43,792 nucleotides of DNA from the IMG/VR virus record IMGVR_UViG_3300048839_001435; one strand, given 5' to 3'. Positions 6,006 to 40,828 of the stretch are shown piece by piece (position 1 is the stretch's first letter; the number at the start of each line of letters is the position of its first letter). Below the pieces are notes generated by a model. It was not told the origin of the DNA. It saw only the letters and a program-made list of their open reading frames with translations, and did no database searches. The position numbers and the translations under genes are program-made. The stretch is from an uncultured virus (IMG/VR IMGVR_UViG_3300048839_001435) (lineage: Duplodnaviria; Heunggongvirae; Uroviricota; Caudoviricetes).

Positions 6006-6209
6006 ATGATCAAGGTCCGCAGCGAAGTGAGCGTCTACGAGGTCAACGGGAAAGAACAGGCCGGACTGTCCCGGCCGAAGATCGCGATCGAGTCGCACTG
6101 GAACCGCGACGCGCTCGTGACGATCTGCATCGGCGACGAGTCGGTGACGGTCGTGGCGACCGACCTGCTCGCGGCTATCAAGAACGCCTGCAACTCGGCG
6201 AGGTACTGA
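6006..6209 (+). CDS. Small hypothetical protein
   Basis: Purine-rich RBS-like sequence upstream, TGATG coupling to the next gene. Confidence 0.65.
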   Translation: MIKVRSEVSVYEVNGKEQAGLSRPKIAIESHWNRDALVTICIGDESVTVVATDLLAAIKNACNSARY

Positions 6210-7840: not shown

Positions 7841-8431
7841 GTGGATCTGCGCTTCGCCCTCAGTAGTTTGGTCGCGCTCGTCGGCGTTGGGGTCATGGCT
7901 GCAGTCGCTGGGCGCCGCAGCCACGAGCAGGATTTGCGTGGCGGAGAGCGGTGGTCCGAAGAGGATGTCCAGAAGGTGCTGGAGTTCGCCCGGCGAGGCA
8001 TGTCCGCGAGCGCGATCGCGCAGCGAATCGGTATGGCGCCGCGGACTGTGTTGATTAAAATGCGCGCTGCGGGGATTCCAGCGCGTCCTCGCGGTGGTTC
8101 GAGGGCTGGCGTTAAAAAATGGACGGAAGCCGACACGCAGCAAGTTCTCAAGTTTGCTAGAGAAGGCGTGCCTTTGATCGAAATCTCGCGACGTGTCGGG
8201 ATGTCCCAGGCGCACGTAGAAAAGATCCTGGTGAAAGAGCACGTCAAGGTGAGGCGGGGTATTCCCCCGATCCTAACCTCGACGACGACTACGAAGGTCA
8301 AGCAGCGCAGCACGTCCGTCGCGTTGGTCCAGCCCGGGTGTTGGGCAACGATGTGGCACGGACGATCAACGGCTTGCTGCTCGTACAGCGCGAGCGCTAA
8401 CCGCCAGACGGCCCCGAGGGCGTCGATTTAG
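7841..8431 (+). CDS. Membrane-anchored tandem HTH protein (paralog 1, C-terminus possibly decayed)
   Basis: N-terminal TM, QDLRG linker, two HTH repeats (GMSASAIAQRIGM, GVPLIEISRRVGM). TAGTCT lies 6 nt before the GTG. Confidence 0.7.
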   Translation: MDLRFALSSLVALVGVGVMAAVAGRRSHEQDLRGGERWSEEDVQKVLEFARRGMSASAIAQRIGMAPRTVLIKMRAAGIPARPRGGSRAGVKKWTEADTQQVLKFAREGVPLIEISRRVGMSQAHVEKILVKEHVKVRRGIPPILTSTTTTKVKQRSTSVALVQPGCWATMWHGRSTACCSYSASANRQTAPRASI

Positions 8432-9398
8432 CTACGCGCAGTCGGTACCGGAGAGTGGGCTCCGGAATTCCGTGCTTCCATGCAGCCGCGTACACGCTCA
8501 TTCCTCGTGAGACATCGGCCATCGCAGCGTCCATCTGAAGTTTGGTCCACCGGGGGGCGTCCCGTCGGTCTTGGGCGATGATGTATCCCACATAAATCGG
8601 GTCTTCATCTAGCAGTCGAACGATCTCGTCCTGCTTGAAGCCCAGTGCGACCGCTTCTGCGACATTGTCGCGGCGTACAGCGTCTGCCCCGCGAGGACGT
8701 CGCACGGGAATGCCTTCTCGCCGCAGGATTCTCAACACACGTGGCGTAGGCACTCCAACACGAATGGAGATCTCGGTCGCGGACACCCCCTCTCTGGCGA
8801 GCGCGAGAAGTTGTTCAACAGGCGTTGGCGTAGTCGCGCTAGAGCCTCGGGGGCGCACAGGAATTCCAGCAGCGCGGACGAGGTCCGTTACACTCGGGCG
8901 TGATACGCCAGTGCGCTCCGCGATCTCCCGCAGCGCCATTCCCCGCCTGGCGAACTCCAGTACCTGTTGCTTGGCCTCTTCCGTCAGTTTGACGCGCGGC
9001 GGTTGACGTGCGACTGGAACTCCAGCGGCGTGCATATAGTTCCGCGCTTGGGCGTACGACATCCCAATACGCTGCGAGATTTCCCGTGCACTCGCCCCTT
9101 GACGAATAAGCTCCAACACCTTCTCTTTGTCCGCCATCCAACGGCCCCTGGGCTGCACGGGAATTCCGGCTTGACGCATGTACCTCATAACGGTCTTTGG
9201 CGTCATACCGATTCGCTGTGCGATCGCGTTCGCGGACATACCGCGCCGGGCGAACTCCAGCGCCTGCTGTTTGTACTCCTCTGGCCACGTCTGTTTGCCG
9301 TGCAGATCCTGTTCGGGGCTGCGGCGCCCGGCGACTGCGGTCATCAGACCGACACCAGTGAGTGCGACCAAACCACTGAGGACGAGGCGCAAATCCAT
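8397..9398 (-). CDS. Membrane-anchored multi-HTH protein ending in a Psq/CENP-B-like HTH (paralog 2)
   Basis: MDLRLVLSGLVALTGVGLM TM, QDLHG, four clear HTH repeats, then WTKLQMDAAMADVSRGMSVYAAAWKHGIPEPTLRYRL. TG-G-TACTAT lies 7 nt before ATG 9398. Confidence 0.8.
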   Translation of the reverse strand: MDLRLVLSGLVALTGVGLMTAVAGRRSPEQDLHGKQTWPEEYKQQALEFARRGMSANAIAQRIGMTPKTVMRYMRQAGIPVQPRGRWMADKEKVLELIRQGASAREISQRIGMSYAQARNYMHAAGVPVARQPPRVKLTEEAKQQVLEFARRGMALREIAERTGVSRPSVTDLVRAAGIPVRPRGSSATTPTPVEQLLALAREGVSATEISIRVGVPTPRVLRILRREGIPVRRPRGADAVRRDNVAEAVALGFKQDEIVRLLDEDPIYVGYIIAQDRRDAPRWTKLQMDAAMADVSRGMSVYAAAWKHGIPEPTLRYRLRVAKSTPSGPSGG

Positions 9399-9426
9399 AC
9401 CTCTGATAGTACCAAAAATCACGGTG

Positions 9427-10425
9427 CTAGGCCACCCCTCCTCCTCCGGGCGCTCTCGGCGCACCCTTGGCTTGGCCCGAACTTGCCGTGCGAAGCCGGT
9501 GCAATACAACAAAATACGACACGTTGTGTTTCAGCGCGGCGGCGTGCGGGGTCATTCCTCGCGCAACATCGGCCAGCGCCGCGCGCACCGCGAGCACCGT
9601 GGCGCTGCGCTGCGGTCTTGCAGCTACATTCGCCACATACAGTGGGTTCTCGTCGAGCAGTTGAACGATCTCGTCCTGCGTGAAACCCAGCTTGAGGGCT
9701 TCCACGACAGCGTCCTGGCGTTCAATAGATGACAGCCCTCGTCGGCCTCCACGCATACGCACTAGGATCGCACCTACGGGCACCCCCGTAGCTTCCGAGG
9801 CATCTCGGCTCGGGATACCGTCGGCAACTAGCTGCAACGCTCGCTGCAGGTCGGCTGGTTGCCAAGTGTCACGCGGGAGGTCCCAAGCCTCGCCACGCAT
9901 GATCTTGTGGCGGATCTGGGCTGAGGCTTCCTCGACTTTGTCTTCCGCGTAGATCAACAGGTATTGAGTGCGGTTGAACTGATCGAGAGTGATCTCGGCG
10001 CCGTACATCATCGCCGGCTGGACGCGGATGGCGTCCAGGGCAACATCACGTTGGTGCGTTCTGGCGGCGCTCGAAAACCCGAGGAGCCAAGGCCGTAGAT
10101 ATTCGAGGAGGACTTGGTTCTCGTCGGAGTAGTCGAGCGGGTCGAACTCGCCGACCTCGACAACAGTGGTGCCGACTGGATCGATGACGCTCTCCGGAGG
10201 GCGGCGCCAGGCGAGCGCGTATCCCGACAGGCCGATACGCCAGCCGACGGGATGCGCACGCAGTCCGAAGACTTGGTGGGGCTCCTTCGGCCATAGCTCG
10301 GGTAGCCGAAGAAACGCCTTTCGAGGATCGATCGGCTGCGAGATGACGGCACTGATGTACGCCGCCCGTGCCGGCGTCAGCCAGTCGACGAGTCCCTTGA
10401 CCTCGTTCAAGTCGTCGACGTTCAT
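9427..10425 (-). CDS. Unknown N-terminal domain plus HTH and Psq-like C-terminal module shared with 8397..9398
   Basis: ATGA overlap with the ART gene stop. LGFTQDEIVQLLDENPLYV aligns with LGFKQDEIVRLLDEDPIYV. Confidence 0.7.
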   Translation of the reverse strand: MNVDDLNEVKGLVDWLTPARAAYISAVISQPIDPRKAFLRLPELWPKEPHQVFGLRAHPVGWRIGLSGYALAWRRPPESVIDPVGTTVVEVGEFDPLDYSDENQVLLEYLRPWLLGFSSAARTHQRDVALDAIRVQPAMMYGAEITLDQFNRTQYLLIYAEDKVEEASAQIRHKIMRGEAWDLPRDTWQPADLQRALQLVADGIPSRDASEATGVPVGAILVRMRGGRRGLSSIERQDAVVEALKLGFTQDEIVQLLDENPLYVANVAARPQRSATVLAVRAALADVARGMTPHAAALKHNVSYFVVLHRLRTASSGQAKGAPRAPGGGGVA

Positions 10426-11222
10426 TCGACGATGCTCCCGCTGTGCAGCGACCAGGTACCCTGGTTGCCTGTGGCGCTCTTGATCTGCCACGGCTCGAAG
10501 GCGATGTACGAGAGCCCGCCGCCTTCGATGGTGTTGCGGTAGATGACTCCGTCGTAGCCCTTGGCCACGAGGTAGTCCTTGACGCTGTTGCCGAGTTCCT
10601 CGGCGGCAATCTCCCGAGGCGTCGTCGTGTAGTCCGAGGACTCGTCGAGCACCTCGCCGAGCGCGTACGCGTACGCCTCCGCTTTGGTCATGCACTCGTC
10701 GTTGACGATGGCGTACGGTGGCGGTGTGCCGGGACCGCAGTCCTCGTCGACGGTCTCGAAGTCGCCGAAGGCTTCGATCCAGTCGTCGATCTCGCGGCTG
10801 TCGCCATGCTCGTAGATGAACGCGATCAGCTCCTCGTCGGAATCGAAGTAGATCGGGTTCTCGATGCGGAGGTAGACCGGAATCACCCGCGGCCACGCGG
10901 GCTGCTCGACGTGCCTGGCCTCGACGAATCGCCGCTGATCCCAGGTCGCTGCCTCACCCTTGGCGAAGCGGGCCGCGAGCTGGGCGTCCGCCGTGAAGTG
11001 CGGGCCGATGTACGCCCCAGGATCGTTGGAACCGGAGATGACGATCTCGCGCTCCCAGTCGTTCTCGCCGGGGAGGTACTGCGTCCCCGTAGCGAACTCG
11101 ACGAAGTCCAGCGGCGACCGCGTCGCGTGATAGACGACGAGCGGCGCGCCAGCATCGGTGACGATCTTGGAGCGCCCGAACCAGTGCCAGAACTTGTCGT
11201 TGAGTGGCGCGGCGCCGAGCAT
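10422..11222 (-). CDS. ADP-ribosyltransferase-like protein (ART-PolyVal type)
   Basis: FWHWFGRSKIV..GAPLVVYHAT, PVYLRIENP, KGYDGVIY, YIAFEPWQIKSATGNQGT: the signature of ART domains in polyvalent proteins. Confidence 0.75.
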   Translation of the reverse strand: MLGAAPLNDKFWHWFGRSKIVTDAGAPLVVYHATRSPLDFVEFATGTQYLPGENDWEREIVISGSNDPGAYIGPHFTADAQLAARFAKGEAATWDQRRFVEARHVEQPAWPRVIPVYLRIENPIYFDSDEELIAFIYEHGDSREIDDWIEAFGDFETVDEDCGPGTPPPYAIVNDECMTKAEAYAYALGEVLDESSDYTTTPREIAAEELGNSVKDYLVAKGYDGVIYRNTIEGGGLSYIAFEPWQIKSATGNQGTWSLHSGSIVE

Positions 11223-16760: not shown

Positions 16761-17732
16761 ATGCCCGCGAGCGCCGCTGACTACGCCCTGATCGCCGGAA
16801 CCGAGATCGCCGAGAAGGACCCGGCGCAGGCGCGCCTGCTGTACATCTACCGGCTGGCACCGGCCGTGCGGCGGTACATCGACGGCAAGACGCCCGACTG
16901 GCCTGTGGTTCGTGTGGGCTCGGGTCTGTCGGCGAAGCTGACGACGGTCGCGAGCTGGCCCGAGTATGTGCTGACCGCGTGGACCCAAGCCGGTGGCTGG
17001 CAGATCCCGGCTCGTGGCCTGCTGATGAAGGTCAACCTCGTGCCGGCGCTGATCCGATCGTCGACCAAGCCGTGGGCGCCGGTATCGTGGGCGGAGGGCG
17101 GTCACCTTTTGGTTCCGATCCAACAGTCGGCGGCCTTCCACGCGACCAAGTGGATCGCGATGCAGAAGAGCCTGCTGTGGGATTCGACCGCGGGGTACTC
17201 GACGATCAAGGCGCTGGTGGACATCGTCACCCTGAAGCCGAGCTACGGTGAGATCACGCCGGCGCTGCTGGTTCACGCGATGGCTGCGCTCGCCGCTGGC
17301 GAGCCGTACGTGCTGGCCAAGCACGAAGCTGTCGTACGCGAGGCTATCGAAGCGGCGGAAGCGATGGCTCCGTGGCCCAAGTGGGGTCGTGGTGGCGGCC
17401 CGTTGCCGTGGAGCGACTCGAAGGTACTCACGCCCAGCATGCAGGAGCGTGAAGCATTCGCGACGAGCTTGCGGAACCTCCAGAGCGCCCTGGAGGCCGG
17501 GCGCGCGATCAAGGGTCAAGCCGCGGCGGGGTTCGACGCCTTGCTGACCAACCTGGAGAACGCGATGGCGAATGCTCCCGGCGACAGCATGCCGCCGCCG
17601 GAGGCGAGCTGGTGGAGCCGGAGGGCGACTTGGCAGCAGGTCGGCATCGTGCTCGCCGGCGCCGGCGCAGCGTACTACAGCTACAAACACGTCAAGCAAC
17701 GCCGCGCAACGCGCAACCTCCTGCCGGCGTAG
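16761..17732 (+). CDS. Putative virion membrane protein, C-terminal TM anchor
   Basis: VGIVLAGAGAAYYSY followed by basic residues, preceded by an operator. Confidence 0.7.
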   Translation: MPASAADYALIAGTEIAEKDPAQARLLYIYRLAPAVRRYIDGKTPDWPVVRVGSGLSAKLTTVASWPEYVLTAWTQAGGWQIPARGLLMKVNLVPALIRSSTKPWAPVSWAEGGHLLVPIQQSAAFHATKWIAMQKSLLWDSTAGYSTIKALVDIVTLKPSYGEITPALLVHAMAALAAGEPYVLAKHEAVVREAIEAAEAMAPWPKWGRGGGPLPWSDSKVLTPSMQEREAFATSLRNLQSALEAGRAIKGQAAAGFDALLTNLENAMANAPGDSMPPPEASWWSRRATWQQVGIVLAGAGAAYYSYKHVKQRRATRNLLPA

Positions 17733-18064: not shown

Positions 18065-18616
18065 GTGTTGATGTCGAGCACTCTCACAACTTCGGCGATC
18101 ACGCAGTATCGCGATGCGCGCGCTGCACAGTCGGCGAAGGTCCGCGAGTTCGTCGCGGACGTCAAACGCCAACGGCCTGGAACGTATTACTACGTCACAC
18201 GAAGTGCAGGCGCCCAGAAGGGCGGCGTGATGGCCGAGGAGCGAGCCTTCGGCTACTACTGGGCGCACGGCGCGTTCGAGGAGATCGGACTCGCCCTGCG
18301 CCGTATGGGCGTCAACGTCGCGTTCCAGCTGCAAGCACCGAGCACACCCGACGCAAGGCTCGTCGCCGCCGCGATCCCCGACGTCGACCAGCAGGTATTG
18401 GGTGTTCCAGCGCACCTGAAGCGCGCCGAGGCGGCTCTAGCGGCATTCGACGCCGAGACCGCGCGGGTCGCCTCGCAGATGACGACCGACAGCATGCGTA
18501 TTACGGCGACGCCGCCTCCGGGACCGGTCTCGACGCCGCTGGTGTTCGTCGGGATCGTAGCCGTGGCTGGACTGGCTGCTGTGCTCGTCCGGCGGCACCG
18601 CCGCGCTGAGGGCTAG
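18065..18616 (+). CDS. C-terminally anchored membrane protein, cargo-less paralog of 33573..34403
   Basis: RBS GGAGG. FQLQAPS and QQVLGVPA...LAAFDAET align with the HicA-fusion protein. Confidence 0.75.
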   Translation: MLMSSTLTTSAITQYRDARAAQSAKVREFVADVKRQRPGTYYYVTRSAGAQKGGVMAEERAFGYYWAHGAFEEIGLALRRMGVNVAFQLQAPSTPDARLVAAAIPDVDQQVLGVPAHLKRAEAALAAFDAETARVASQMTTDSMRITATPPPGPVSTPLVFVGIVAVAGLAAVLVRRHRRAEG

Positions 18617-27496: not shown

Positions 27497-29899
27497 ATGT
27501 CGAAGTCTCCCAAGGAGCCGCTGCGCCTCGATCCCGCCAAGCTGATGACGATGAAGGAGCCTTTCATCGTCCGCGTCGAGAAGATGCGCGGGTCGTCCCG
27601 GATGCCGATCGAGCTGCCCGTCCGTGGCGACGGGCTGGCTCCCGGTGAAGGCTGGGACAAGGACTCGATCCTCAAGATCGACAACTGGCTCGCCACGACC
27701 TGGAGCGGTGGCGGCGTCTACCGGATCCTGGTCGTCGACCAGCAGGGCGACCGGCTGGAGTGGGAGTCGGTCTACGACCCTCGGCAGTTCCCCGAGCGCA
27801 TCCCCGAGACGATGACGCCTGTCGGCAGCGCCCCGGCCGCCGCACCAGCCCCTCAGGCCGCGACAGCTACGTTCAACGGCTCGTGGCCTCCACAGGTCAT
27901 CGGCTGGTCGACGCCGCCCCAGGTGTCGGGCAACTCGGGGCCGCAGCAGAGCACGGCAGGGCCCTGGGCGCAGCCGGGCGCCGGCGCTCCGGGGATGCCG
28001 CCCCCGGGCTACAACGGCAGCAGCGGCAACGGCTTCAACGGCAACGGCAACGGCAACTACAACAACGGCAACGGTGGCGGCGGATGGGCCGCGCCGGGCT
28101 GGACGCCGCCCTCGTCCCGTCGGCGGTATTCCCCTCGTCCCTGGAGTGACGACACCGTGTCCAATCCCTGGTTCTCTCCCCCGCCCCCTGTGACGCCCTA
28201 CCGCGAGCGCGAGCGCGACGATCGCGGTGAGGAGGAACGCCGCAAGCTGCAGGAGCAGCTCCAGAAGATGCAGGAGGAGCGGCTCGCAGCCAACTACCAG
28301 GCGCAGCTCGACCGGCTCCAGCAAGAGCACCGCATGCAGCTCCAGGCGCTCCAGGAGGAGATCCGCCGCAACGCCGAGCGGCTGGCGACGACGAGCGCCA
28401 CCAGCCCCGAGGCCGAGCAGCTCCGCGAGCAGCGGGCACAGCTGGAGCGCGAGCGCCTGATCGCCCAGCAGGAGGAGAAGGAGCGCCGTGAGGAACTCCG
28501 GCGTGAGCACGAGCGCCTCCAGCTCGAAGATCGCTTCCGGCAGATGCAGGAGATGATCGTCAAGACGAACGAGGCCGCTCAGAACCAGCTGCGCGAGATC
28601 GTCAACGTCATCTCCACCAAGTCGACTGGTCCCGACCCGGCCGTCAGCCAGCTCCAGGACCAGCTCCGGGCGCAGCAGGAGGAGATGCGTCGGGCGCAGG
28701 AGCGCCTGGAGAACGAGAACCGCATGCGCGAGATGCGCGAGCAGATGCGCATGCAGGAAGAGGCCAACCGGCGTCAGCTGGAGGCGCTCCAGATGCAGCT
28801 GCAGCAGAACCGCGGACCGGACCCGGCACTGACGCTGATGCAGACCCTGATGGATCGTCAGACCGCGGCGATGCAGGAGGCGATGCGGAACCAGCAGCAG
28901 ACGTTCGATCGTATGAACAACCAGTCCATGACGGCGCGCGATGTGATCGCGCTCGTCAAGGACAGCAGCAGCGGCATCGACGACCTGCGCAAGACGCTCA
29001 CGAACACCTACAGCGACATCTTCAACACCCAGAAGATGGTCGTCGAGCACGCGATGCAGCTCTCCGGCGGCGGCGGCCCGTCGCTGGGTGAGCGCGTGAT
29101 CGAGGGCGCTGTCGAGCGCGTGGGTGCGCTCGCCGACAAGTATCTCACCGTCCAGCGGGATCGGACCGTGAGCGCGGCCAAGGCGCAGCAGGCCCAGGCC
29201 GATGCGGCGGCGGCTCAGGCCGCGGCCTACGCGGCAGCTGTCCAGCGGAACGCGCCTGCGGGCGCGGCGCAGGCGACACCTCCCGCGTCGCCGGCGGCAC
29301 AGGCGGCGGCGCAGGCCGCTGCTCAGGTCAAGAAGCAGCAGCGGCAGGCGTCTACCACGGCGCCCGCGGAGTCGGCCTCGGGCGGCCTCGGAGATGCTGG
29401 CGCCGCCACTGGCGCCCCTGGCGCGACGACGCCGCCGATGGGCAAGGTGATCCAGATGCGGCGCCACGGCCGGACCGACGAGGAGTGGTTCGGCCTCGCG
29501 CTGCCCGAGGTCAAGAAGCTGCGGACCGGCGTGGCCAAGTTCCTCCAGTCGATCGGCCGAATGGACGCCCAGGGCAACCACGACCCCGACCTCGACGAGA
29601 ACGGCAACCCGATCGGCTACGGCCCCGAGCAGTGCGCGCAGTTCCTGCTCATCGGCGCCAACCGCATCAGCGGCCTGAACGTCGCCGTCCCCGCCTTCGA
29701 CAACCTCTTCAAAGAGGGCCGCTTCGCCGACTTCCTGGACGTCGTCCTGCCGGATGCGCCGCAGCCGTTCCGCGATGACGTCGTCAAGTGCGTCCTCGCC
29801 GAGATGGAGGCCGCTGGCGAAGGGCCGGAGGTCGCCGACGTCGACGACGAGACCGACGAAGCCGACGATGATGAGGCCGAGGACGAGGCCGCCGAGTAG
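27497..29899 (+). CDS. 800-aa protein: globular head, P/G/N low-complexity region, long Q/E/R coiled coil, acidic tail
   Basis: Very strong codon bias, TAGGAT 9 nt before the ATG, followed by a terminator. Confidence 0.85.
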   Translation: MSKSPKEPLRLDPAKLMTMKEPFIVRVEKMRGSSRMPIELPVRGDGLAPGEGWDKDSILKIDNWLATTWSGGGVYRILVVDQQGDRLEWESVYDPRQFPERIPETMTPVGSAPAAAPAPQAATATFNGSWPPQVIGWSTPPQVSGNSGPQQSTAGPWAQPGAGAPGMPPPGYNGSSGNGFNGNGNGNYNNGNGGGGWAAPGWTPPSSRRRYSPRPWSDDTVSNPWFSPPPPVTPYRERERDDRGEEERRKLQEQLQKMQEERLAANYQAQLDRLQQEHRMQLQALQEEIRRNAERLATTSATSPEAEQLREQRAQLERERLIAQQEEKERREELRREHERLQLEDRFRQMQEMIVKTNEAAQNQLREIVNVISTKSTGPDPAVSQLQDQLRAQQEEMRRAQERLENENRMREMREQMRMQEEANRRQLEALQMQLQQNRGPDPALTLMQTLMDRQTAAMQEAMRNQQQTFDRMNNQSMTARDVIALVKDSSSGIDDLRKTLTNTYSDIFNTQKMVVEHAMQLSGGGGPSLGERVIEGAVERVGALADKYLTVQRDRTVSAAKAQQAQADAAAAQAAAYAAAVQRNAPAGAAQATPPASPAAQAAAQAAAQVKKQQRQASTTAPAESASGGLGDAGAATGAPGATTPPMGKVIQMRRHGRTDEEWFGLALPEVKKLRTGVAKFLQSIGRMDAQGNHDPDLDENGNPIGYGPEQCAQFLLIGANRISGLNVAVPAFDNLFKEGRFADFLDVVLPDAPQPFRDDVVKCVLAEMEAAGEGPEVADVDDETDEADDDEAEDEAAE

Positions 29900-31032: not shown

Positions 31033-31991
31033 CGCCGGTCTCTGCGCCGCTCGAAGCGCTTCACGAAGTCACCGTCGTCGATGTTGTTCATCAAGGACAG
31101 CAGGTTGTCCTCGATGTACTGCCTCGGAGTCTTGTGAGCGTACATCAGCTCAGCCATCGGCGTATCGCGTACGGCATTGGTCAGATCCCAGACTGCAGGG
31201 AAGTAGCCCATGTCAGTCCTCGGCCAGATGCCGTAGAGCGCATCTACGAGCGTCTCGCCGTGGTGAGGATACTTGCGGCGTAGTTGGCGTTGGACCTTGG
31301 GCGACAAGTGCTCCCACACGGCACCGAAGTCGAGGTTCACGGTGTTGAGCGTGTCGTCGGTAGCGACGTCGAAGTCGTTCTTCCACTCTCGGTAGGCTTC
31401 GTCAACACACTCCTGCTCGGCCGCGTTGGCGCGTTCGTCGGCGTCGTCTTCGTCGAGCCCCTCGTCTTCAGCTTCTTGCTTGGCGTATCGCCAGGCATCG
31501 ATGCAGCCGTCTCGAACGCGGTCTCCGACCTTCTCGTCCCAGGCGTGCTCGAATTCGATCGCCTCGACGAAGTCGTGGTGCCAGAACCAGAGCGGAGTCT
31601 GGTCGTCCATGAACGCCCGCAGATCGTAGAACACTCGACGATCCTCCGGCCATCCGGCACGGGTCAGCTGGTCGGGCGGATCCCCGATGGCCGCCTGGGC
31701 CGCGGGAAACCAGATCAGGTTCTCGTGTTCGTGATGCTTCACGAATGGACGCTCGTGCCGCGTCAAGGCCGACACGTTCATCTTGGTGAGTGAGTTGCGC
31801 AAGAACAGCTCGACGGACACCAGATCGACATCGGTCCCCGTCTGCGTCGGATCGTTGGTCTCCGCGATCGCCGCGAAGTAGGTGCAGAACTCCGGCATGG
31901 GCACGAACTTCTTGGTGCCGACCATCAAGTTCGACGCGCTCAGCGCACGGCAGATCGCGGCGGGCGTGATTCGGTTGACGAGCCTAGTCAT
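31029..31991 (-). CDS. Hypothetical acidic protein
   Basis: RBS GGAGG before ATG 31991, EAEDEGLDEDDADE tract. Confidence 0.75.
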   Translation of the reverse strand: MTRLVNRITPAAICRALSASNLMVGTKKFVPMPEFCTYFAAIAETNDPTQTGTDVDLVSVELFLRNSLTKMNVSALTRHERPFVKHHEHENLIWFPAAQAAIGDPPDQLTRAGWPEDRRVFYDLRAFMDDQTPLWFWHHDFVEAIEFEHAWDEKVGDRVRDGCIDAWRYAKQEAEDEGLDEDDADERANAAEQECVDEAYREWKNDFDVATDDTLNTVNLDFGAVWEHLSPKVQRQLRRKYPHHGETLVDALYGIWPRTDMGYFPAVWDLTNAVRDTPMAELMYAHKTPRQYIEDNLLSLMNNIDDGDFVKRFERRRDRR

Positions 31992-33231
31992 CGGTTTCCT
32001 CCAACTCGTCTTCGGCCCCCGTGAACCGCGAGACGATATCGTATCGCGCACCTCGCGGCGCGTTGGCCGCGATCCACCGCTCCGCGTGATGCTCGGCGTG
32101 TTCGACGTCCCAGAACTTCTCTGGCAGCACAACAACCTTCTCGGAGGTGAAGATCGCCGCCTGGAACTCCATGGAACGGCCGATCGGCAGCGGGATGCCT
32201 TGCTTCATCGCTTCGAGACGCACCGCCGACGGCAGTCCGCGGTCAGTGTTCTCGTCGACGGACACGACGAGGTCGGGATCCGCCGCACCCGTCGCCGGCA
32301 AGTGGACCGTCTTCGAGCCATCTCGGGTCTGAATCGTCCACGTTTGCCTGTCAGCGCTCAGCGTGGCGAATGCTTCCGTGCGCTCGATGTCGACGGCGCC
32401 GATCCATTCACCCATGTGCAGCACGATCTCCGCAACGTCGATCCCTGGGAGCTTGTCGTCGAAGCCATTCAGGTTGAGCAGGTACTCGCGGTAGTATTCG
32501 TAGCGCCGTTCTTGAACGGATGCGTTGTCGTCCGAGCCCGGGTGTTCGCGGACAGCTTCTCGCCACGCCTCTTCGCGGTCGTCTTTGAAACGATCGTCCT
32601 GTTCGACGAACTCCTCGAACGTCGAGTAACCTTCTTGGCTGTACTCGATGTAGACGCCGTACGGGCCGAGATCGTACCCGGCTTCTTGCCCGACGACTTG
32701 GATCTCGACGCTGGTGTCCGTCAACGCGACGGACCCGTTGAAGTCGAAGTCGATCGGGTCGGCATAGCGCAGAAAGCGCGCGATGTCGTCGCTGACTGGC
32801 AGCGGCGTGATGTCGATCGGCCCAGCCCAGCTGCCGTCTTGGAGCAGTACGAACCCCGTCGGCCGCTTGTACAGGTCGAGCACGGCGACGAGGTAGCACC
32901 CGAAGTCGAGCGGCGGTGGCTCGGCATCCCCACGCTCGGCGAGCCGCAGTTCGACTTCGACGGCCATCCGGCGCCGCGGAATCGCGTCGAGCTTCAAGCT
33001 CGTCGGCAGCAGCCACGGCTTCCAGTCCGCAGGCAGGATCTCCTGGGTGCGGCCCTTCTCGAACGTTTCCGTGAAGACGCCATGGAACCGCCCGATCGCG
33101 CTGACGATGATGGCGTCGTCGTCTTCCTGATTCTCTGCAGGCGTACTGAGGATCGCCGCGGCGTAAGCCGCCTTCGGCCAGCCTTGATACTGCCAGCTGA
33201 AGCACTTCAGTAGCTCGTCTGGGTCGACCAT
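31984..33231 (-). CDS. Hypothetical acidic protein
   Basis: 415 aa, TG-A-TAGACT upstream. Confidence 0.75.
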   Translation of the reverse strand: MVDPDELLKCFSWQYQGWPKAAYAAAILSTPAENQEDDDAIIVSAIGRFHGVFTETFEKGRTQEILPADWKPWLLPTSLKLDAIPRRRMAVEVELRLAERGDAEPPPLDFGCYLVAVLDLYKRPTGFVLLQDGSWAGPIDITPLPVSDDIARFLRYADPIDFDFNGSVALTDTSVEIQVVGQEAGYDLGPYGVYIEYSQEGYSTFEEFVEQDDRFKDDREEAWREAVREHPGSDDNASVQERRYEYYREYLLNLNGFDDKLPGIDVAEIVLHMGEWIGAVDIERTEAFATLSADRQTWTIQTRDGSKTVHLPATGAADPDLVVSVDENTDRGLPSAVRLEAMKQGIPLPIGRSMEFQAAIFTSEKVVVLPEKFWDVEHAEHHAERWIAANAPRGARYDIVSRFTGAEDELEETDD

Positions 33232-33572: not shown

Positions 33573-34403
33573 TCACTTGCGCCCCGATGAACGCGCCAGC
33601 CGGCGCAGGTTGGCGAGGAAGTTCTTCCACGAACGATGATCGCTCGGCGTGCTCGCGGCGAATGCGATGCTGCCGTTGGGGTGCGTCCAGCGGTAGTGGC
33701 CGCCCTTGGTCTTGGTGACCGTCCAGCCCTCGCGACGCAGCTCCTCGGCGACCGTGGAGTCCACGCGCTTGAAGATCCGGCGGATGTCCCGCTGGTCCAG
33801 GGGCTTCGGCCCTTGCAAGGCCGGCGCAGCCGGCGCAGCCGACGATGCGCGCCGCCTGAGCGCGATGGCGAACAGTGCGATGATCGCCAGGCCGCCGACC
33901 GCTATCCACTTCGTGGTGTCGGTGATCTGGATCGCCGACGTCGCGGAGCCCTTCTGCGCACGCGTATCCGACGGCGGCGACGAAACCGCCATCCGGTTGA
34001 TGGCCGCCTGAGTCTCGGCGTCGTACGCCGCGAGCCACGCAGCCAGCTTCTCGCGCGCGGCGGGCAGCCCCAGCACCTGCTGGAGTCCGGCCTCGCGCTG
34101 GAGCCCCAGCTTCTGGACGATCGTCGCCGCGGTACCGCTCGGCGCCTGGAACACGAACGGGACGACGATCTTGGCGGCAGCCAGCGGCTTGCGTACCTCG
34201 GCGTAGAATGCCTGCGGGCTCCACAGCACGACGTTGCGCCCATCGGCTTCGTGGTACTGCACGAGTTCGCCAGTGCCGCCGATCAGGAAGAGCGCATTCG
34301 GTCGGCTCAGCTCAGTCAACAGACTTCGTTGCCCTGCCGACGACGCCGCACGGCTCCGCTGGTACGCTTCGATCGACATCGGCACTGTCGTCCCCAGTTG
34401 CAT
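33573..34403 (-). CDS. Membrane carrier protein fused to a C-terminal HicA-like RNase domain
   Basis: MQLG start (TGATG-coupled), TM KWIAVGGLAIIALFAIAL, linker APALQG, then EGWTVTKTKGGHYRWTHPNG...STPSDHRSWKNFLANLRR. Confidence 0.8.
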   Translation of the reverse strand: MQLGTTVPMSIEAYQRSRAASSAGQRSLLTELSRPNALFLIGGTGELVQYHEADGRNVVLWSPQAFYAEVRKPLAAAKIVVPFVFQAPSGTAATIVQKLGLQREAGLQQVLGLPAAREKLAAWLAAYDAETQAAINRMAVSSPPSDTRAQKGSATSAIQITDTTKWIAVGGLAIIALFAIALRRRASSAAPAAPALQGPKPLDQRDIRRIFKRVDSTVAEELRREGWTVTKTKGGHYRWTHPNGSIAFAASTPSDHRSWKNFLANLRRLARSSGRK

Positions 34404-34849
34404 CACAGGCGGTCTCCGTAGGTACGGTAGAAGTAGATGCCGGCGGCGACGCCGCCGATGACCAACGCAGGCACGAGGTACTTGCGCCACGGCGACTCTT
34501 CGTAGGTCGCCTTGACCATGAACGCCTCGACGAATCGCAGCGCGACGGCCACGGTGGGCCCTGCGTCGATTGCGCTGTCGCCGTCACCCTCGTCGGCGAC
34601 GTTGTCGAGCGGGAACGGCATGAAGATCAGCCGTTCGACCGTCAGGCGGTCCCACGCAGCTTTCTGCTGCGCGAGCAGGGACTGCGGCCACCAGACGACC
34701 TTGCGGCCCGACAGCGTCATCACCGGCGTCACGACTGCGCGTGGCGACCTGGCGATCCGCGCGGTGCTGTAGCCGGCGGTCTTGAGTCCGCGCAGGTAGC
34801 CGCGCAGGTCCCTCACGACGGCCAGATCCTCCGGCGAGTCCAGCAGCAT
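34403..34849 (-). CDS. C-terminally anchored membrane protein
   Basis: TM YLVPALVIGGVAAGIYFY, translational coupling. Confidence 0.7.
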   Translation of the reverse strand: MLLDSPEDLAVVRDLRGYLRGLKTAGYSTARIARSPRAVVTPVMTLSGRKVVWWPQSLLAQQKAAWDRLTVERLIFMPFPLDNVADEGDGDSAIDAGPTVAVALRFVEAFMVKATYEESPWRKYLVPALVIGGVAAGIYFYRTYGDRL

Positions 34850-34856
34850 CGTCACG

Positions 34857-35447
34857 TCACACCGTCGCAGCTGCGCCGCGCCGCTCGGCGCGAACGGCAC
34901 GAACCAGGTTGTAGAGCGAGACGGCGACGACCGCGCTCGTCGAGAGCGCGGTCAGCAGGAACATCCGACGGCGGTGATTCTCCTCCGCGATGAGCACCTG
35001 CGCCTGCCAGGGCGCCAGTGACGGATCGAGGGTCGGCGCCGTCCCCGGAACGGTGCCTGGCGTCGTCGGCGGGACCATCGTGTCGCCCAGCCCAGGGCCG
35101 GGCCCGACGCCAGGCGTCCACGGCGGCGGCATGTAGCCGTTCGCGGTCCGGATCCAGCCGCTCCGCACGGGCGTGTACCCCCGGTGCGGCGCCAGCTCGG
35201 CATCGGTCGGGATGCCGCCCAGCACTCGGCGCACCGACGGACCGGCCACGCCGAACGGCGCGCGGAACGGTGCGCCCAGTGCCGTGTCGTAGTAGAACCC
35301 CTGCTCCCCGCGTTGGTTGTAGTAGGGATCGAACGGCGGCAACTGAGGCGCGTTGTCCGGGCCCGAGCTGGTGATCTCCCAGGGGTAGGCGTTCTTGATC
35401 TGGCCGTACGGCGTCAGGACGATGCCGAGCTGCGAACCGGATGGCAT
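34857..35447 (-). CDS. Pro/Gly-rich membrane protein with several LG motifs
   Basis: SQLG, ALG, VLGG, GLGD, C-terminal TM. First gene after an operator and TG-A-TAGGCT. Confidence 0.75.
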   Translation of the reverse strand: MPSGSQLGIVLTPYGQIKNAYPWEITSSGPDNAPQLPPFDPYYNQRGEQGFYYDTALGAPFRAPFGVAGPSVRRVLGGIPTDAELAPHRGYTPVRSGWIRTANGYMPPPWTPGVGPGPGLGDTMVPPTTPGTVPGTAPTLDPSLAPWQAQVLIAEENHRRRMFLLTALSTSAVVAVSLYNLVRAVRAERRGAAATV

Positions 35448-36125: not shown

Positions 36126-36281
36126 TCACTTCTTGAGCACGAGGTAGGCGCCGCCGGCGACGACGACGATGCCCGCAGCGATCAACGCCCACGGTGTCTT
36201 GGACTTCGCCGCAGGCGTGACGAGGTGGCGAGGATCGAAGACCATCAGCCGCGGTTCGACAGCCGAGTCTGCGCGCAGCAT
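36126..36281 (-). CDS. 51-aa single-TM protein (not in the ORF track)
   Basis: Ends PWALIAAGIVVVAGGAYLVLKK, the same YLVLKK end as the upstream gene. Confidence 0.7.
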   Translation of the reverse strand: MLRADSAVEPRLMVFDPRHLVTPAAKSKTPWALIAAGIVVVAGGAYLVLKK

Positions 36282-36284
36282 GGT

Positions 36285-37103
36285 TCACTTCTTCAGCACG
36301 AGGTAGAGCCCTCCGAGGAGGACGATGCCGCCCGCGATCGCGAGGCCGACCGTCGTCGGATTCCACGCCGAAGGCGCCGAGGGAAGGAACCCACCGGCCT
36401 CGCCGGCGGCGCCGCGCCGCTTGGCGATGTAGATCTGGATCCCAACCGCCAGCGGCTTGGCCGAGGTGCGGACGAAGTTCGTCGCTGCGGTCGTGACGGT
36501 CTTGCTGATCAGGGCGCCCTGCAGCGCCGCCGTCATCGCCAGGCGCATCGTCTCGCCGCCCTTGATGTCGCCGGAGACGTACGCCATCGAGTTGGCGAGG
36601 GCGCTGAGCGTGCCGTAGTTGACGACGCCCGTGATGCCTCCGGGGTCAGTGTTCAGTCCGAGCGCTGCTAGATCCGTGAGCGCCTGCTGGAGCGCTGCAA
36701 CGCCGTCTCCGGGGACGTCGTTGGGGGCGTCCTTCATGTTGGCCGCTGGCACCCACCCCAGACCGCCCGTCGAGTAGACCTGCCACCAGCCGCCGCTGAC
36801 GGCCAGCACCTTGACCCGCGTGTTGATGCCGAGCGTACCGATCGTCTTGGACTTGGCGTTCGGCTGCTGGTAGACCGCGGTCGACTTCGTGGCGACGGCG
36901 GGGAAGCCGCCGCTGTCCGCTGCTCCGAGCGGCCCGTAGAGCGCTGCGCCGTCTGCGTAGTTGGCGTTGACCTCGGGCGACGGCGTCCACTCGGCGGGCG
37001 TCCGCGCCATCGAGCCGGCCGGTCCGCCACTGTAGACGTGGATCGGATAGGCACCTGGCATCCCTAGCCCGGCCGAGCCCATGTTCAGGCGGATGTGGGT
37101 CAT
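36285..37103 (-). CDS. SH3b plus peptidoglycan-binding-like domain protein with C-terminal TM
   Basis: AVYQQPNAKSKTIGTL...GWWQV...GWVPAANM (SH3b), VAALQQAL...PGGITGVVNYGT (PG_binding_1-like), N-terminal GLG and PLG. Confidence 0.75.
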   Translation of the reverse strand: MTHIRLNMGSAGLGMPGAYPIHVYSGGPAGSMARTPAEWTPSPEVNANYADGAALYGPLGAADSGGFPAVATKSTAVYQQPNAKSKTIGTLGINTRVKVLAVSGGWWQVYSTGGLGWVPAANMKDAPNDVPGDGVAALQQALTDLAALGLNTDPGGITGVVNYGTLSALANSMAYVSGDIKGGETMRLAMTAALQGALISKTVTTAATNFVRTSAKPLAVGIQIYIAKRRGAAGEAGGFLPSAPSAWNPTTVGLAIAGGIVLLGGLYLVLKK

Positions 37104-37123
37104 ATGCACCCGAGGCTATCTCA

Positions 37124-38515: not shown

Positions 38516-38752
38516 TCACGCGACGGGGGGCACCGGCGGCAACGGCGGCAACGCCACCGGCTTGCGCAGCTGCTTGACCGCGTAGATGGCCCCGAGCACC
38601 GCGCCGGTGATCGCGATGCCGATGCCGAGCGCACCGAGATCCTGCCAGGTGCTCCACGGCTGCTGGCTTTCGGCCTCCAGCTCCTCGGCCTCGTCCGACG
38701 CGGACTGCGTCTGCTGCTGAGCTACGATGTCTACCAGGGGCGACGGATCCAT
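38516..38752 (-). CDS. Small single-TM protein
   Basis: LGALGIGIAITGAVLGAIYAV, TAGAAT 6 nt before the ATG. Confidence 0.7.
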   Translation of the reverse strand: MDPSPLVDIVAQQQTQSASDEAEELEAESQQPWSTWQDLGALGIGIAITGAVLGAIYAVKQLRKPVALPPLPPVPPVA

Positions 38753-40459: not shown

Positions 40460-40828
40460 ATGGACTACACCGACGAGGACTACCAGAACCTGGGCGAGCA
40501 GCACAGCTTCACCAAGGACTATGGCCTCGGTGAAGTCGAACTCGTCGACGGGCCTCCGGCGGACAGCGTCTTCATCGACGCCTCCGGCAACTGGGTCTAT
40601 CCCACGACGCCGCTGCAGATCGGCCCCCGTGGCGTTCTCGGGGGCGTGGTCGACACGTTCAAGAGCATCTGGGGCGGAGCCAGCAGCACCGCCGAAGGCG
40701 CGGCCGACGTCTACGCGTGGTGGCAGATGCACAAGCGCAAGATCTACATCGGCACCGCGCTCGTCGTCGGCGTCGCTGGCGGTCTCCTGCTGTGGCGCAT
40801 CGTCGCCGGCAGCGACTCGCGGCGCTAG
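40460..40828 (+). CDS. C-terminally anchored membrane protein
   Basis: NLG, YGLG, VLGG, TM IYIGTALVVGVAGGLLLW. Confidence 0.75.
   Translation: MDYTDEDYQNLGEQHSFTKDYGLGEVELVDGPPADSVFIDASGNWVYPTTPLQIGPRGVLGGVVDTFKSIWGGASSTAEGAADVYAWWQMHKRKIYIGTALVVGVAGGLLLWRIVAGSDSRR

Follow-up and report, generated by a model that had tools for sequence, protein, structure and literature searches.

A published catalogue of HicA domains distinguishes 14 gene contexts, among them HicB-HicA and SMC-HicA fusions, with the antitoxin-first order as the commonest hicBA layout; its main text contains neither 'membrane' nor 'transmembrane' (Gerdes 2024, PMC10865869). The Gly/His pair of HicA is described as catalytically important (PMC11373665, citing Makarova 2006 and Butt 2014). 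Among HicA-like proteins carried by phages, Adephagia gp91, which is paired with the HicB-like gp90, is reported as highly toxic (PMC11373665), and LeBron gp82, an orphan, as non-toxic on overexpression (PMC13148394). A membrane-associated type II toxin of any fold was first proposed in 2025, from sequence. As set out in the text of Gerdes 2025 (PMC11980606), a bioinformatic study only, ToxM consists of a cytoplasmic RelE/BECR-fold domain, a membrane segment and an outer domain, its antitoxin ToxR, of ribbon-helix-helix (RHH) or helix-turn-helix (HTH) type, is encoded upstream, and ToxM-ToxR is called the first possible membrane-associated type II complex. Here we describe a gene on the minus strand, at positions 33573..34403, of a 43,792-nucleotide stretch of DNA from an uncultured virus (IMG/VR record IMGVR_UViG_3300048839_001435), which places a HicA-like domain behind a membrane helix. 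The whole stretch is called the window below, and the gene the target.

Among the papers listed by full-text searches, none concerns a membrane-bound HicA, and a fusion of a HicA-like domain to a membrane helix is not among the HicA gene contexts given in the main text of PMC10865869. Our reading of the target as a whole, to which we assign a probability of roughly 0.5, is that it encodes a HicA-type effector, accessory and restricted to the membrane, for which no HicB is needed. A sequence-only reading of the window had singled out the same gene as a HicA-like RNase fused behind a membrane anchor, with a cargo-less paralog and no visible antitoxin. The evidence for the architecture is given first, followed by the search for an antidote, the genomic setting and the competing explanations.

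Domain architecture of the gene at 33573..34403

Downstream of its membrane helix and the RRR that follows it, the target product runs on through ASSAAPAAPALQG into a C-terminal domain with G234-G235-H236, that is, a histidine with a glycine two residues before it. In Pfam, the target matches HicA_toxin (PF07927) and nothing else (E 6e-4, profile positions 6-32 of 58). The domain also matches the PADLOC model PDLC02910 'HicA-like' (9.1e-14, profile positions 7-61 of 61), the PHROG families phrog_2089 (function unassigned; 3e-13) and phrog_353 'toxin' (1.9e-4), and the HicA-family structure 1WHZ (1whz_A), the latter at E 0.0023 with the target alone as query and with KGGH..THP.G aligned. When a profile of 83 family sequences was used instead, 1WHZ was matched at E 5.4e-4 and the HicA chain 5yrz_B at E 0.34. 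Pfam HicA_toxin is matched by 40 of these 83 family members at E up to 0.01 (best 4.9e-6), no other family recurs among them, and the subfamily matches the Pfam profile only over positions ~2-35. The PADLOC, phrog_353 and 1WHZ matches, together with the 40 relatives that hit PF07927, place the domain in the HicA superfamily, of which, judged by sequence, it is a divergent branch. Its homology to HicA is highly probable, and the HicA-like domain with a GGH histidine that had been recognised by eye is thereby corroborated. What emerges is a well-defined HicA-like subfamily that curated Pfam thresholds miss.

With the target as query, 674 matches at E up to 0.001 were obtained among 1.84 billion representative proteins. 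Among the 150 matches listed, 148 are confined to target residues 168-276, and the other two are P0001, treated below, and P0013, which was rejected as a family member because it is a spurious repeat protein. Most of the 150 are free-standing proteins of 52-110 amino acids, and 19 of them, P0001 and P0013 included, have at least 110. The family consensus reads GW.V..T.GGH.R..HP.G..VF..STPSD.RA.KN..A.LRR. In an alignment of 95 sequences, G226, H236, P253, D255, R257 and N261 are conserved in at least 90%, and in the domain-only alignment of 83 sequences the same level is reached by G, W (W227), H, P, S, D, R and N. For a predicted RNase activity of this domain that depends on the histidine, we consider the odds to be a little short of even.

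The AlphaFold2 model of residues 204-276 (predicted local distance difference test score, pLDDT, 86-96) contains a helix at 216-225, strands at 228-231, 236-240 and 246-250, and a helix at 256-275. This core order of alpha-beta-beta-beta-alpha is the one expected for HicA, whose fold resembles a double-stranded RNA-binding domain (dsRBD), and is preceded by one further helix. The predicted fold fits HicA, so that the lack of a dsRBD-like fold, which had been named as an outcome that would speak against the assignment, was not encountered; structure searches with the model add no discrimination.

The N-terminal part of the target has a single counterpart in the window, the product of 18065..18616. 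The two proteins share 29% identity over 199 columns (BLASTP, E 2e-5), and in an all-against-all comparison of 56 window proteins they form the strongest cross-match (E 2.5e-7); the only other cross-match is that between 36285-37109 and 36126-36281, described further below. When the soluble N-domains were compared with their helices removed, the Smith-Waterman score was 111, against 32.8 +/- 5.8 for shuffled sequences (z 13.4), and none of 1000 shuffles reached 111. The paralogy is therefore significant, and the motifs QAPS, QQVLG.PA and LAA.DAET, which had been pointed out as common to both proteins, are invariant in the target, P0001, the paralog and the paralog orthologs P0151-P0153. Both proteins continue into a hydrophobic helix, at 163-185 in the target (mean 2.06) and at 152-178 in the paralog on the Kyte-Doolittle scale with a 19-residue window; AlphaFold2 extends the target helix over 161-187. 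Arginines follow the helix in both: the target has RRR, the paralog RRHRR. The paralog then terminates, 8 residues beyond its helix, whereas the target goes on with ASSAAPAAPALQG and the HicA-like domain. The AlphaFold2 models of the two proteins share one order of elements, namely a long helix, three strands, a helix, a strand, one or two short helices, a long helix and the membrane helix, and differ in that the paralog has a fifth strand at 107-112 where the target has a short helix at 106-110. The paralog model has a mean pLDDT of 74.8 and a predicted template modelling score (pTM) of 0.62; the target N-domain was modelled poorly (pLDDT 32-77). Alignment and structure prediction, which the sequence-only reading had proposed as checks, thus support its account of the paralogs. 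Its modular view of the design is upheld as well, since the paralog has the N-domain and helix but no cargo, and hundreds of proteins of 60-90 amino acids consist of the cargo by itself.

The N-domain is confined to a very small set of proteins. Among 5.8 billion and 1.84 billion proteins, its only relatives are P0001 and P0151-P0153, one of the latter three being present on 13 contigs, the longest of 98.7 kb. None were found in IMG/VR, GTDB genomes or JGI metagenomes, and the ESM Atlas gave no usable match. The paralog model matched no fold (Foldseek best E 0.9; VIA-align best Z 7.0, none of at least 8), the structure matches from both programs concerning mainly its helical hairpin. The beta-beta-beta-alpha-beta stretch of the N-domain had raised the suspicion that it is HicB-like. 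This was not supported: the N-domain profile matches no HicB among PDB sequences, hhalign gives a probability of 0.1 against the actinobacterial partner family described below, and the structure searches with the paralog model return helical-hairpin matches only.

The target is very likely a single-pass membrane protein. The 162 residues before its helix carry a net charge of +3, against +14 for RRR plus residues 186-276 (+11 for the domain). By the positive-inside rule, the positively charged side of a membrane helix faces the cytoplasm. Given +14 against +3, the C-terminal part is predicted to be cytoplasmic and the N-domain to face outward, and we consider it probable that the HicA-like domain lies on the cytoplasmic face. 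A scan for hydrophobic windows among the 150 family matches listed (out of 674) picked out two further proteins, P0046 (212 amino acids) and P0068 (218 amino acids), in which an N-terminal HicA-like domain is followed directly by a hydrophobic helix (Kyte-Doolittle 2.09 and 2.23, respectively); weaker hydrophobic cases (P0065, P0084 and P0148) were set aside. In both, LRRMG lies on the HicA side of the helix. Beyond the helix, P0046 has an HExxH region that matches Peptidase_M48 at E 5.7e-4, with 20.2 bits against a cut-off of 20.3. Like the target, P0046 and P0068 have a TPSD-type domain that adjoins a hydrophobic helix and is the side on which the arginines lie; unlike the target, they have the HicA-like domain first, and their outer parts are unrelated. 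Since membrane attachment is found in at least two domain orders, tethering of this domain recurs, and in each tethered case the basic residues point to a cytoplasmic position of the HicA side.

Several observations bear on the integrity of the gene. The ATG of the target shares bases with the stop codon of the upstream gene (TGATG; context CTGTGATGCAA) and has GGAG ~10 nucleotides 5' of it; with this overlap and this upstream GGAG it is the likely start, and an alternative longer GTG start at 34490 falls within the upstream gene. The G+C content at third codon positions is similar in the N-domain (0.85), the helix-linker part (0.85) and the C-domain (0.90), so the whole open reading frame (ORF) looks coding and of one composition. 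P0001, a 276-residue protein in public assemblies, is 99% identical to the target (I167M, T228M, T240A). The target gene is covered by contigs of four runs from three studies; among the contig differences listed there are two indels, both in the downstream gene, with none in the target and no joints, and the substitutions in the target are two synonymous ones and one P114T. Because independent contigs span the gene without indels or joints among the differences listed, the fusion is no assembly artefact. Contigs that span the target also come from two RNA-library runs (X5 and X7), although contigs cannot show transcription. The gene is thus confirmed as a real feature that had been accurately described. 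As an observation in its own right, about 30 of the listed strain substitutions fall in ~530 nucleotides (32677-33204) of the gene for a 415-residue protein at 31984-33231, against 3 in the 831 nucleotides of the target, a low count that, among the differences listed, is a hint of stronger constraint on the target.

Search for an antidote and the flanking genes

No HicB could be recognised in the window, as had been claimed: none of 322 ORF translations of at least 49 amino acids matches a HicB family of Pfam. The E limit was 1 for two of these ORFs, 0.01 for 49 and 0.001 for 135 plus 136, and the scanned set comprised the window apart from 310-711, 724-984, 1078-1305, 6006-6209, 36126-36281 and the ORFs that run off the window ends. 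Neither in the target nor in the window, therefore, does the HicA-like domain have a recognisable HicB, adjacent or fused, as in a HicAB module. The features discussed here and below are listed in Table 1.

Table 1. Features of the target, its paralog and neighbours in the window, and partner genes at loci from other records (locus handles beginning with L).
Feature	Position	Strand	Remarks
Target gene, 276 amino acids plus stop	33573..34403	-	N-domain, one membrane helix, RRR, Ala/Pro linker, HicA-like domain; from the ORF list
N-domain, residues 1-165	33909..34403	-	Lineage-specific; predicted long helical hairpin with small inserted beta-sheet; fold matches none known
Membrane helix core, residues 166-182, WIAVGGLAIIALFAIAL	33858..33908	-	Predicted by Kyte-Doolittle and AlphaFold2
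RRR (183-185) and Ala/Pro-rich linker (186-203, 18 residues)	33795..33857	-	From sequence
HicA-like domain, residues 204-276, 'TPSD' subfamily	33576..33794	-	His236 codon at 33696-33698
Paralog without cargo, 183 amino acids	18065..18616	+	Same N-domain, membrane helix, RRHRRAEG tail
Upstream gene, 165 amino acids (GTG 34900) or 148 (ATG 34849)	34403..34900	-	C-terminal hydrophobic helix (by eye); stop overlaps target start
Downstream gene, 105 amino acids	33248..33565	-	Two hydrophobic helices; 7 nucleotides after target; conserved backbone gene
Gene for 196-residue protein	34857..35447	-	C-terminal helix; conserved backbone gene; other border of variable slot
ADP-ribosyltransferase, ART-PolyVal type	10422-11222	-	Pfam E 1.8e-14
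371-residue ORF	8397-9512	-	Several HTH_23-type matches (best 4.1e-22); missed by G+C-based gene list
800-residue protein	27497-29899	+	Gly/Asn/Pro-rich stretch, Gln/Glu/Arg-rich helical middle, acidic tail
C-terminal-helix proteins	34857-35447, 34403-34900, 36285-37109, 36126-36281, 38516-38752, 40460-40828, 16761-17732, 18065-18616
Actinobacterial partner loci	L004 436-939, L027 2081-2692, L043 1394-1921, L032 1046-1876; also L024, L041, L044	- for L043 and L032
Further small partner families	L008/L015/L026 and L016/L039

Free-standing relatives were examined for the same feature. No annotated HicB stands near those in Rhodococcus phage E3, Rhodobacter phage RcXuper and a Methylobacterium plasmid, the RcXuper relative itself being annotated 'HicA-like toxin'. 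For a broader sample, 43 genomic loci were collected with a degenerate DNA pattern for TPSDHRxxKN (Ser as TCN and Arg as CGN only), so that the sample is biased by the pattern; a family member is present in 34 of them (hmmsearch, E up to 1e-3). None of the 129 ORFs of at least 50 amino acids within 150 bp of these 34 family genes matches a HicB family. An adjacent cognate HicB in homologs, which the sequence-only reading had named as evidence against itself, was thus not observed. Other Pfam matches among the 129 ORFs were two, one to ArsC/Glutaredoxin and a weak one to Cas2.

At 12 of the 34 loci, a conserved gene that Pfam does not name lies closely 3' of the HicA-like gene on the same strand. 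These genes come from seven actinobacterial loci (~170-200 amino acids), three loci of Acidimicrobiia (128-130 amino acids, with a gap of 2 nucleotides), and L016 and L039. The C-terminus of the actinobacterial partner is HTH-like (EIAEMLGVSRQRA..FP.PV…W.RKPGRP), with sigma region 4 and the AlpA regulator as its best PDB hints (E 0.27-0.41), and there was no Pfam match at E up to 0.001 in the four loci scanned (all but L024, L041 and L044). By its sequence, this partner is a candidate for an unnamed antitoxin family, and the subfamily seems to include toxin-antitoxin-like pairs whose second gene is unseen by Pfam.

Next to the target itself there are two genes to consider. The soluble part of the upstream protein has no match in Pfam, PHROG, PADLOC or NCBIfam, and none to an HTH or RHH; the gene is missing from the same slot at L047 and L048, two loci from related records. 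It is a lineage-specific gene and a candidate partner of the target. A complex prediction with the HicA-like domain and upstream residues 1-125 scored 0.00, the partner fold being uncertain, and weighs neither way. The upstream protein was also tried as a third paralog on the strength of GR.VV.W.PQ, seen by eye, and rejected (E 4.9 against the hidden Markov model of the N-domain family). The downstream gene has 122 homologs at E up to 0.01, and an identical copy is found on 42 contigs, the longest of 171.5 kb. As a dedicated antidote it is unlikely, being a conserved backbone gene that is present where the target is absent.

The variable slot and the virus-like element

The downstream gene is present in three IMG/VR records of 124-147 kb, with CheckV completeness of 98, 67 and 94%, one of them with terminal repeats. 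At L047 and L048 the backbone around it is kept, that is, the 196-residue protein (BLASTP, L047 4162-5046, E 5.5e-17; L048 3798-4949, E 5.5e-15), the two-helix protein and, encoded on the other strand, the 800-, 144- and 117-residue proteins. The slot between the 196-residue and the two-helix genes holds the 165-residue gene and the target in the window, a gene for 107 residues at L047 and one for 161 residues at L048, both unrelated. The N-domain family is found in none of the three related records, and the HicA-like family in one, as a free 71-residue gene elsewhere in the record. Because the slot content differs and the N-domain is absent from the related records, we class the target as accessory, a gene of one lineage. 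In the record with the free gene (G002), this gene, at L050 1483-1698 (-), overlaps the end of a gene for an acidic, Cys-rich protein of 132 residues (1695-2093, -) and is followed by one for a 231-residue protein with a C-terminal hydrophobic helix (846-1541, -), neither of the two flanking proteins having a Pfam match.

Metagenomes from wastewater, sludge, bioreactors and aquatic habitats (12 studies) contain near-identical DNA, and the element is virus-like, of 124-171 kb and found in wastewater. We say virus-like because the viral label rests on IMG/VR and CheckV. The Terminase_6N and HK97-capsid families of Pfam were found in none of the three related records, and PHROG gave no capsid or terminase among the 59 ORFs of at least 200 amino acids in one of them (G001). 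PHROG matches were obtained for 18 of these 59, mostly to replication, nucleotide-metabolism, methylase and integrase functions, with one 'virion structural/tail spike'. The gene content seen in the three records (G001, sampled as L051-L057, G002 and G003) includes replication genes, methylase, thymidylate synthase, MazG and integrase. The whole region has no DNA match in phage or plasmid collections.

Elsewhere, the window holds a UvrD-type helicase, with Virus Rctr197k as its best phage match (35%), and an HTH_17 protein, but no tRNA genes. The 800-residue protein has no family match and is conserved at L047 (7390-9522), L048 (7419-9518) and L049. An unusually large number of window proteins end in a hydrophobic helix, and several of their genes form two clusters, one around the target and one around the paralog. 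For six of those in Table 1 the helix was identified by scoring hydrophobic windows, and the helices of 34403-34900 and 16761-17732 were judged by eye. The 51-residue ORF at 36126-36281 (-) repeats the hydrophobic C-terminal tail of the SH3_3 protein at 36285-37109 (-), with 52% identity over 29 residues (E 0.007).

Alternative explanations and comparison with known systems

In the explanation that we prefer, the target would be a single-pass membrane protein that holds a HicA-type RNA-binding or RNase domain at the cytoplasmic face of the membrane, with the lineage-specific N-domain on the other side of the helix. It may have arisen when a small free HicA-like 'TPSD' gene was joined to one copy of a duplicated gene for N-domain and anchor, and this accessory gene would be moron-like. 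The C-domain would most likely work where it is anchored, as an endoribonuclease or RNA binder confined to the membrane, and tethering, possibly together with the state of the outer domain, would limit its reach. If its reach is limited in this way, a soluble HicB antidote would not be needed.

A number of points weigh against this explanation. In Pfam the HicA_toxin score stays below the gathering cut-off of 27 bits, both for the whole protein (20.3 bits) and for the domain alone (22.6 bits). The top Foldseek row for the domain is 1whz, but with E 0.12 it does not single out HicA; VIA-align gives 6g26_E (B. pseudomallei HicA) Z 4.1 (root mean square deviation 3.7, 56 residues aligned), and unrelated chains reach Z 4.8. 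Some genomic members of the subfamily lack the histidine (L027 and L024), and the phage orphan LeBron gp82, as described, is non-toxic. The charge-based topology may be wrong because an N-domain of 160 residues without a signal peptide is awkward to export. An antidote for the target that Pfam does not name could exist, since 12 of 34 relatives have such linked genes. All known examples of the fusion belong to a single 90% cluster of six member sequences, too narrow a set to show that the architecture has been conserved over evolutionary time.

Several of these points bear on a first alternative, in which the domain is a non-toxic adaptor whose HicA-like fold brings RNA, ribosomes or a partner to the membrane. 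The C-terminal half of the domain diverges from canonical HicA (TPSDxRxxKN..LRR), the histidine is missing in some members, in large phages such genes stand alone, no antidote being annotated, and gp82 (PMC13148394) is an orphan reported as non-toxic. The target, however, keeps both the histidine and the glycine two residues before it, and that histidine is at least 90% conserved in the 83 relatives. Moreover, 12 of the 34 genomic members stand directly 5' of conserved partner genes, one family of which is HTH-like, as in toxin-antitoxin pairs, and Adephagia gp91 is described as strongly toxic (PMC11373665). We regard an adaptor as possible but doubtful.

A cryptic toxin-antitoxin pair is a second alternative, the partner being the upstream gene, the N-domain, the free paralog or the downstream two-helix protein. 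It draws on the upstream gene, which overlaps the target start, is equally lineage-specific and also encodes a C-terminal hydrophobic helix; its position agrees with the antitoxin-first layout that is commonest for hicBA according to PMC10865869, and the subfamily has partners that Pfam does not name. Yet neither HicB nor the partner families show any detectable similarity to the upstream protein, the N-domain profile is unlike that of the actinobacterial partner family (the hhalign probability of 0.1 given above) and the N-domain, if outside the cell, cannot reach the C-domain, while the downstream gene belongs to the conserved backbone and occurs where the target is absent. Such a pair is improbable on this evidence.

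The sequence-only reading had proposed a third possibility, a tethered pro-toxin, that is, a HicA RNase that tethering restrains up to its release, possibly for host shut-off or competitor exclusion; in such a model, proteolysis of the Ala/Pro linker would set the RNase free. An 18-residue Ala/Pro-rich linker does lie between RRR and the domain, no HicB is recognisable in the window ORFs scanned, and members of the cargo family are found as small proteins on their own. Against it, neither a cleavage site nor a protease gene nor a processed form was observed, and being tethered on the cytoplasmic side is not in itself enough to inactivate an RNase. Furthermore, the free relatives in the three phage and plasmid records are also without an annotated HicB, and hence a missing HicB needs no special restraint to account for it. 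We consider this mechanism quite improbable. A reversed topology, with the N-domain in the cytoplasm and the HicA-like domain exported or displayed outside, would suit a long N-domain that lacks a signal peptide, but it would need RRR and a domain of charge +11 to cross the membrane, would place an RNase fold where it has no obvious substrate, and runs against the arginines of P0046 and P0068, which are likewise on the HicA side of the helix, so that it is hardly credible.

Returning to the membrane-restricted effector, a bolder and unlikely extension of it is that membrane-anchored HicA-like proteins are one-component transmembrane sensor-RNases with interchangeable outer domains. The outer domain would detect an envelope event (e.g., another phage attaching or injecting, or wall damage), and a signal through the single helix, for example by clustering, would switch on the cytoplasmic HicA-type RNase. 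Outer domains might have been recruited repeatedly, namely the N-domain here, the M48-like region in P0046 and another in P0068, and the cargo-less paralog could be a decoy or modulator that pairs with the sensor. The target, although a fusion of a single lineage, points to a recurrent design, and it provides a test case for whether localisation or an outer sensor domain, instead of an antitoxin, can control a toxin-type RNase.

Compared with known systems, the target resembles canonical HicA (PF07927; 1WHZ, 6G26, 5YRZ) in its small domain of predicted alpha-beta-beta-beta-alpha order with G-x-H, and differs from it in scoring below the Pfam cut-off, in its TPSDxRxxKN..LRR C-terminal half, in its place behind a membrane helix and in that no HicB was found. 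The phage-borne gp91 and gp82 are likewise HicA-like, gp82 also being without an antitoxin, but as described they are free proteins of 70 amino acids with no membrane anchor. Closer in layout are classes 11-14 of Gerdes 2024 (PMC10865869), in which, according to its main text, a HicA domain is joined to another domain with no separate antitoxin gene; the HicA domain is C-terminal in classes 12-14, as in the target, and N-terminal in class 11. Unlike in those fusions, the N-domain of the target has no detectable HicB or SMC similarity.

The closest likeness in design is to ToxM as presented in PMC11980606, which also has a small RNase-toxin domain predicted to be cytoplasmic, one membrane segment and a structured domain on the far side. 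ToxM differs in its BECR fold, in the N-terminal position of the toxin, in the upstream ToxR and in being bacterial, whereas the target is on a virus-like element, matches only HicA-like models among toxin types and follows a gene whose product has no HTH or RHH match. The target may therefore be likened to a mirror-image ToxM with a HicA-type domain, an analogy of design and not of descent; if the sensor-RNase proposal were true, it would be the antitoxin-less HicA counterpart of the ToxM idea, carried by a virus-like element.

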